Shown: piece by piece, positions 1 to 407 of the stretch
Layout: every line of letters starts with the position of its first letter
Position numbering within the stretch: position 1 is the first letter of the stretch
Source of the DNA: Escherichia coli
GTDB taxonomy: Bacteria > Pseudomonadota > Gammaproteobacteria > Enterobacterales > Enterobacteriaceae
Direction: 5' to 3' (one strand)
NCBI RefSeq assembly: GCF_003334335.1
Contig: NZ_QOWQ01000197.1
Length of the DNA stretch: 407 nt
The notes under the pieces: model-generated
What the model was told of the DNA's origin: nothing
Databases searched by the model: none
The model's input: the letters and a program-made list of their open reading frames with translations, nothing else
Program-made: the position numbers and the translations under genes

Positions 1-407
1 ATCATCACGCCAATGGAGCCGATACGGGATGTCTGGGTAACCAGCCGTCGGGAGCAGGCCGACGCCAGCAGCATGGCTGCAGAACAGGCCGTGTCATTGC
101 ACAGTGCCCAGACCGGCTTCTGCTGACTAAGTCGGTAAATCATGTCAGCACAGTCAAACGCACCGGCGGCCTGCCCGCCCGGACTGTCAATGTCCAGCAG
201 TACACCCCGCACCTGGCTATCCGCCATTGCCTGCTGAAGACAGGCGACAATGCCGTCATAGCCTGTCATTCCGGAAAATGGCCGCATACCCCCCAGCCGG
301 TGCACCAGCGTGCCTGTCACCGGCAGTACAGCAATACCGTTCACCACCCGGTAAACACGGGCCGGTCGTTTACCTCCGGCCATGTACTCGTCCGTTTCAG
401 CCAGCAT
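1..407 (-). CDS. Phage prohead (head maturation) protease, peptidase S49 family, lambda gpC-like; partial CDS (C-terminal part continues beyond position 1; N-terminus may lie beyond position 407)
   Basis: The minus-strand frame with codons at 407-405 down to 5-3 is open for all 135 codons. The translation contains the blocks RVYRVVNGIAVLPVTGTLV, RPFSGMTGYDGIVA, GVLLDIDSPGG-AGAFDCAD, KPVWALCND-CSAA-LLASA-SRRLVTQT and IGSIGVMM. From memory these align closely with lambda gpC (…SYQVMNGIAVLPVSGTLV…QPYSGMTGYNGIIA…GILLDMDTPGGMVAGAFDCAD…KPVWALANDMNCSAGQLLASAASRRLVTQTARTGSIGVMM…). Codon choice is typical of enterobacterial genes (CTG, CCG, GGC, GCC). The opposite strand shows only short interrupted ORFs. 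Confidence 0.9.
   Translation of the reverse strand, partial: MLAETDEYMAGGKRPARVYRVVNGIAVLPVTGTLVHRLGGMRPFSGMTGYDGIVACLQQAMADSQVRGVLLDIDSPGGQAAGAFDCADMIYRLSQQKPVWALCNDTACSAAMLLASACSRRLVTQTSRIGSIGVM
81..83 (-). other. Codon for the predicted nucleophilic serine of the S49 protease (Ser109 of the window translation, in the motif N-D-T-A-C-S-A-A)
   Basis: Plus-strand aga at 81-83 is TCT (Ser) on the minus strand. It sits in the block ALCNDTACSAAMLLAS, which aligns with the lambda gpC block ALANDMNCSAGQLLAS. As I recall, the Ser in that block (Ser166) is the proposed catalytic residue of gpC. The assignment rests on remembered homology, not on computation. Confidence 0.5.

Follow-up and report, generated by a model that had tools for sequence, protein, structure and literature searches.

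The DNA that we analysed, called the window below, is a stretch of 407 nucleotides from Escherichia coli that lies entirely within one gene. On the minus strand, positions 1 to 407 carry a reading frame of 135 codons, none of them a stop, that reaches the window edge still open and whose translation opens with MLAETDEYMAGGKRPARVYRVVNGIAVLPV. Both ends of the gene fall outside the window. We therefore give coordinates beyond position 407 as extrapolated window positions and as positions in the locus L001, in which the gene is on the plus strand and the window occupies 3001-3407. The features referred to in the text are the following.

Window 1..407, minus strand: internal gene segment, codons 54-188 plus 2 nt of a 501-codon gene.
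Window 81..83, minus strand: codon of Ser162, the putative catalytic nucleophile (lambda gpC Ser166), invariant in 111 homologues.
Window 318..341, minus strand: NGIAVLPV codons, residues 76-83, the first beta-strand of the S49 core (predicted strand E78-88).
Window 381..383 (L001 3025; window codon 9), minus strand: ATG read as internal Met62 and not as a start; weak Shine-Dalgarno (SD) match.
Window 405..407 (L001 3001), minus strand: ATG read as internal Met54 and not as a start; no SD, frame open upstream.
Extrapolated window 566-564 (L001 2842-2844), minus strand in the window: GTG, the predicted start.
Extrapolated window 581-576 (L001 2827-2832), minus strand in the window: AGGAGA Shine-Dalgarno sequence.

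A megablast search returned two kinds of match with 100% identity to the window: Escherichia phage PhiR5_1 (PV340545.1 30080-30486) and ten complete E. coli records, in which it lies in prophages and is annotated 'S49 family peptidase'. Gene 5 of phage 21 (M81255) matched at 98% nucleotide identity, and matches to the window occur in 1,934 of 5,426 complete E. coli genomes. The enclosing CDS is 1,506 nt long in all three records that we examined (PhiR5_1, an E. coli chromosome and phage 21), and its label varies between 'head-tail preconnector gp5', 'head-tail preconnector protein Nu3', which is accompanied by a note reading protease C / scaffolding domain Nu3, and 'S49 family peptidase'. Gene order is the same in the three records: terminase, W, portal, the protease gene, head decoration, major capsid and FI. 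The full protein matches the profile phrog_53 'head maturation protease' end to end (residues 1-501, E=2e-224), carries the ClpP/crotonase-like domain Pfam Peptidase_S49 (PF01343) at residues 146-293 (E=2.6e-35) and shares 53% identity with lambda gpC over 412 residues. A search of the window against Rfam returned no match at E<=1. The gene product thus combines an S49 serine protease domain with a C-terminal scaffold, and the gene belongs to a lambdoid, phage 21-type E. coli prophage. The window carries the form of phage 21 gene 5 that occurs in PhiR5_1 and many E. coli prophages.

The opposite strand is open as well. Frame 3 of the plus strand, which is in phase, is stop-free across window 1-407 and belongs to a 191-aa ORF (L001 2857-3432, minus strand); it is open because the sense gene uses no TTA, CTA or TCA codons in this region. 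We considered this antisense ORF as a gene and rejected it as a shadow ORF, given that the frame is interrupted in the homologues from Gifsy-1, N15, 705R4 and the Vibrio and Aeromonas phages.

A first-pass annotation of the window had described the ATG at its edge (405-407), a second in-frame ATG at 381-383 and a frame that was still open, all of which are present, and had regarded the choice of start codon as ambiguous. It had placed the NGIAVLPV block about 75-80 residues from the N-terminus of lambda gpC, which agrees with its position at residue 80 in gpC of NC_001416, and in the window frame the block occupies residues 23-30 (window 341-318, minus strand). In themselves the two ATGs are unremarkable, since 14 of the 135 codons in this frame are ATG or GTG. 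Beyond the window edge the frame remains open for a further 66 codons, up to a TAG at L001 2803-2805, and the first ATG, GTG or TTG after this TAG is the GTG at 2842-2844, which lies 53 codons (159 nt) upstream of the edge ATG and is the sole such codon ahead of a conserved N-terminal block described below. Counted from this GTG, NGIAVLPV begins at residue 76, and the suspicion that the real start lies upstream of position 407, with roughly 50 residues missing from the window as implied by the position of this block, was well founded; the actual number is 53. The proposed check for an overlap with the end of a portal gene gave a clear answer, as the GTG overlaps the portal gene by 11 nt, the portal stop being the TAA at L001 2850-2852. 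The region is shared among related records: each of the ten E. coli records with a 100% match also carries these 221 nt of upstream sequence at >=99.8% identity, which makes the placement of the start independent of the record chosen, and PhiR5_1 carries them too.

For each candidate start we scored pairing with the anti-SD sequence as the best duplex in the 17 nt ending 3 nt before the codon. The GTG at 2842 reached -9.1 kcal/mol, within the top 5.4% of all locus positions, with AGGAG and GTG set 10 nt apart, near the upper limit of usual spacing; pairing of this strength, in the top ~5% of locus positions, is not decisive alone. The next candidate, the ATG at 2944 (codon 35), scored -2.5 kcal/mol (68th percentile of locus positions) and sits downstream of most of the conserved block, and the ATGs of the window scored +0.6 kcal/mol (window 407-405, L001 3001; 97th percentile) and -3.2 kcal/mol (window 383-381, L001 3025; 53rd percentile). 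Across the 47 in-frame ATG, GTG and TTG codons of the ORF, the best two duplexes belong to the ATG at 3745 (-10.3) and the GTG at 2842 (-9.1), and these are the annotated starts of the nested gene pair in M81255. Moreover, the CDS is annotated from L001 2842 in PhiR5_1, in the E. coli chromosome (PGAP) and in phage 21 alike.

Comparison with homologues points to the same codon. Within the 53 residues encoded upstream of the edge ATG, the block NLSHIIAAAFNEPLLLEPAYARVFFCAL is nearly identical in lambda, N15, phi80 and Gifsy-1, and phage 705R4 and the Vibrio and Aeromonas phages have it in a recognisable form. Nine homologues start 2-6 codons ahead of the NLxHI...FNxPLxLEPxYARVFF block, with a portal overlap of 1-20 nt; strong SDs (-11.8 to -12.7) are present in lambda, N15, phi80, Gifsy-1 and 705R4. 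Over the same 53 codons, differences at codon positions 1/2/3 number 17/15/30 against Gifsy-1 and 18/17/32 against lambda, a bias of substitutions towards third positions that indicates coding constraint on this segment.

Protein searches extended this picture. The 120 matches listed by the first search were all near-identical E. coli proteins, 118 of these 120 cluster representatives having an MRRNLSHII-like N-terminus equivalent to the GTG start, and diversity was therefore drawn from representatives clustered at 50% identity. The best 150 of these are 36-97% identical to the query. In 128 of them the alignment runs from the N-terminal block and the N-terminus lies <=10 residues from that given by GTG 2842; eight are 11-40 residues longer, two are unrelated long fusions (P0128 and P0267), and in 12 the alignment begins only past query residue 20, several of the latter being fragments. 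In the phrog_53 match, residue 1 of the protein falls at profile position 4. As a separate observation, P0128 (844 aa) joins ~410 unrelated N-terminal residues, which are not portal-like, to a lambda-type gpC exactly at gpC residue 3, and may be a chimeric assembly or an engineered construct.

Our search of citing papers found no experimental N-terminal sequence for phage 21 gp5 or lambda gpC, and the GTG start thus rests on annotation and comparative evidence. From these we infer that the GTG is the start used in vivo. Ribosomes would then initiate at this codon via an SD that is embedded in the end of the portal gene. The placement of the GTG inside the last 11 nt of the portal gene suggests translational coupling, and through this overlap synthesis of the protease may be tied to synthesis of the portal protein within the late operon.

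We next describe what the upstream codons would contribute to the protein. An AlphaFold2 model of residues 1-300 (mean pLDDT 94.2), built on a 111-sequence alignment of homologues at 35-93% identity, places helices at residues 6-12, 21-35 and 51-63 and a beta-hairpin at 39-50 within residues 1-63 (block pLDDT 81-94), followed by a linker (block 61-70, pLDDT 69) and by the S49 core from about residue 73. Pro16 hardly varies in the alignment, where entropy is low over columns 13-31, and on this evidence a ~63-residue N-terminal module is conserved across the lambdoid S49 proteases. The module is encoded by L001 2842-3030, and residues 54-63 alone lie inside the window, at 407-378. Met54 is placed within the predicted helix 51-63 (block pLDDT 92) and Met62 at its end, before the linker, such that initiation at Met54 would remove two helices and the hairpin and leave an N-terminus in mid-helix. 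We found neither a solved structure (PDB, searched by sequence) nor a described function for the module, and it is the sole part of the locus that might repay further work.

The window ATGs could nevertheless have a role in addition to the GTG, which would produce the full-length protein while Met54, or Met62, served as a secondary site for a protease without the N-terminal module. Nested in-frame initiation does exist in this gene, at the gene 6 start with its strong SD (L001 3745) and by analogy with C/Nu3, and Met occupies column 54 in 26 of the 111 homologues, including those of Gifsy-1, Vibrio phage HY01 and 705R4; if true, low-level initiation at Met54 would add a third nested product to the gene 5/gene 6 locus. 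However, Leu is the majority residue in this column (Leu 51, Met 26, Ile 9), which we read as a hydrophobic structural position and not as a conserved Met, and column 62 is highly variable and gapped in 33 of the 111 homologues. No SD precedes the column-54 Met in any homologue examined (-3.0 to -3.4 kcal/mol), and a product of this kind is annotated neither by PGAP nor by the phage 21 authors. Weighing these points, we regard a dual use of starts as very unlikely.

Still less credible, to a degree that we would give it hardly any weight, is that the ATG at 407-405 (or that at 383-381) is the sole genuine start, which would leave ~22 residues before NGIAVLPV. This much shorter N-terminus had been put forward by the first-pass annotation as the alternative to an upstream start, and it is contradicted by the conserved block NLSHIIAAAFNEPLLLEPAYARVFFCAL upstream of the window. 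ATG is a better start codon than GTG, a few representatives (P0208, P0239) begin at the S49 core, and the CDS of Vibrio phage HY01 (L007, MT366580.1) is annotated from an ATG at 551 whose Met aligns with Met54. In HY01, though, both the ORF and the homology begin at an ATG at 395 that overlaps the portal stop (402), and the CDS as deposited is probably 52 residues too short at the N-terminus, with the conserved block among the missing residues. What had been named as evidence for the edge ATG, an in-frame stop immediately upstream of 407 and a good ribosome-binding site in front of 405-407, was not seen in either part: the 66 codons upstream contain no in-frame stop and neither window ATG has an SD. 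In addition, the 53 upstream codons are conserved at the protein level as far as the Vibrio and Aeromonas phages with third-position-biased substitution, column 54 is mostly Leu, and the start would fall mid-helix in a confident prediction.

Equally implausible is that the protease has no start of its own and is instead produced as an extension of the portal protein, through a programmed frameshift close to the stop of the portal gene: the protease frame is indeed open for 13 codons upstream of the GTG (55-69 in lambda, Gifsy-1 and the Aeromonas phage), and the PHROG profile phrog_21 'portal protein' matches residues 18-295 at profile positions 502-795, which indicates that some family members join portal and protease regions in one protein, but the upstream open length is not conserved (2 codons in 705R4, 8 in N15 and phi80), every homologue has a start codon with an SD, the long N-terminally extended P0128 and P0267 have no similarity to the portal protein, and all records examined have one gene for the portal and another for the protease.

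We conclude that the window is the inside of a gene of the lambda C/phage 21 gene 5 type and that translation almost certainly starts at the GTG 159 nt past position 407. The apparent ambiguity of the start is a window-edge artefact that arises from where the window was cut, and the matter is biologically minor, the start position being already annotated in phage 21, lambda and an E. coli prophage.

Downstream of the N-terminal module, the alignment identifies Ser162 and Lys214 as invariant among the 111 homologues (35-93% identity), and we regard the two as a putative conserved catalytic dyad. Ser162 pairs with a Ser in the alignment with SppA, which we take to be the catalytic Ser of the SppA structures. 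The codons of the invariant residues His191 and Lys214 lie beyond window position 1.

The second annotated initiation site of the gene also lies outside the window. The start of the nested gene 6/Nu3-like scaffold gene is the ATG at L001 3745, which is preceded by an AGGAGG-like SD whose duplex (-10.3) is the best of the whole ORF; gene 6 is annotated in M81255, and lambda Nu3 is nested likewise. Close homologues of the full protein cluster at lengths of 451, 482 and ~497-501 aa, and these steps of ~31 aa probably reflect differences in the 'Tri box' repeats of the scaffold part (L001 3745-4347; M81255). Searches of the scaffold part for tandem and direct repeats recovered weak 21-nt matches alone, the 'Tri boxes' of M81255 having diverged too far at the DNA level for such tools.

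A hybrid of the two phage types was observed within the protease gene. In phage D2 (L011, OM475427.1), a lambda/21 hybrid, the sequence is 100% lambda-like up to the portal end and over the first ~100 codons, and from there on it is of the 21 type, with the crossover at the conserved GMTGYDGI, at window ~250-265 (L001 ~3140-3156). We considered the boundary between the N-terminal module and the S49 domain as the recombination joint and rejected it, since the D2 crossover lies further in and marks no domain boundary.

The systems to which the gene can be compared differ in how much of it they share. SppA, also of the S49 family and the only relative of solved structure that the sequence search identified, shares the protease domain: the SppA sequence alignment begins at residue 77 (E=3.5e-16), and the model of residues ~77-290 is predicted to have the same fold as the SppA structures (PDB 3rst, 4kwb, 3bf0; Foldseek E=5e-20), with target-normalised TM-scores of 0.84-0.87 over 215-226 aligned columns for Bacillus subtilis SppA in the Foldseek comparison with the PDB. 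The conserved Ser and Lys positions are shared as well, whereas SppA has neither the ~65-residue N-terminal module nor the scaffold tail. The protein scores below the NCBIfam cut-offs for SppA (TIGR00706, 111.9 bits vs 155.45; TIGR00705, 66.9 vs 311.45) and is thus a family relative and not an SppA equivalog.

Lambda gpC, the S49 capsid assembly protease C with nested Nu3, is closer. It is an essential viral (procapsid) protease (PMC10695390, PMC12617516, PMC3224144) that processes head proteins and itself and is unresolved in mature particles (PMC12617516, PMC10695390, PMC3224144), and processing of head proteins during procapsid maturation is known for it (PMC12617516, citing Medina et al. 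2010). Its N-terminal block is conserved (NLPHIASMAFNEPLMLEPAYARVFFCAL), and its start is likewise a GTG that has an SD and falls within the end of portal gene B, although the overlap is 20 nt compared to 11 nt here. NGIAVLPV occupies residues 80-87 in gpC and 76-83 in our protein, Ser166 corresponds to Ser162, and the linker that joins the N-terminal module to the S49 core has 4 more residues in gpC, which carries no Met where our protein has Met54 and Met62. A further difference from lambda is that the C-terminal scaffold part of the 21 type contains three internal repeats.

All testable defining features of the gpC/gp5 family were found in the gene, namely the S49 domain, Ser162/Lys214, the N-terminal block, a nested scaffold gene and the placement between the portal and the decoration and major capsid genes. 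Nothing in this is new: annotations of phage 21 (M81255) and lambda already contain the gene with its GTG start, portal overlap and nested scaffold gene. The closest counterpart is gene 5 of phage 21, which encodes the head-tail preconnector gp5 with the nested scaffold gp6 (M81255) and also has 501 codons and a GTG start. Point differences from the window allele are few, with 5 substitutions within 219 nt of sequence upstream of the window. Its putative RBS is annotated in the corresponding position, it overlaps gene 4 (portal) by the same 11 nt, and the nested gene 6 start is likewise shared.
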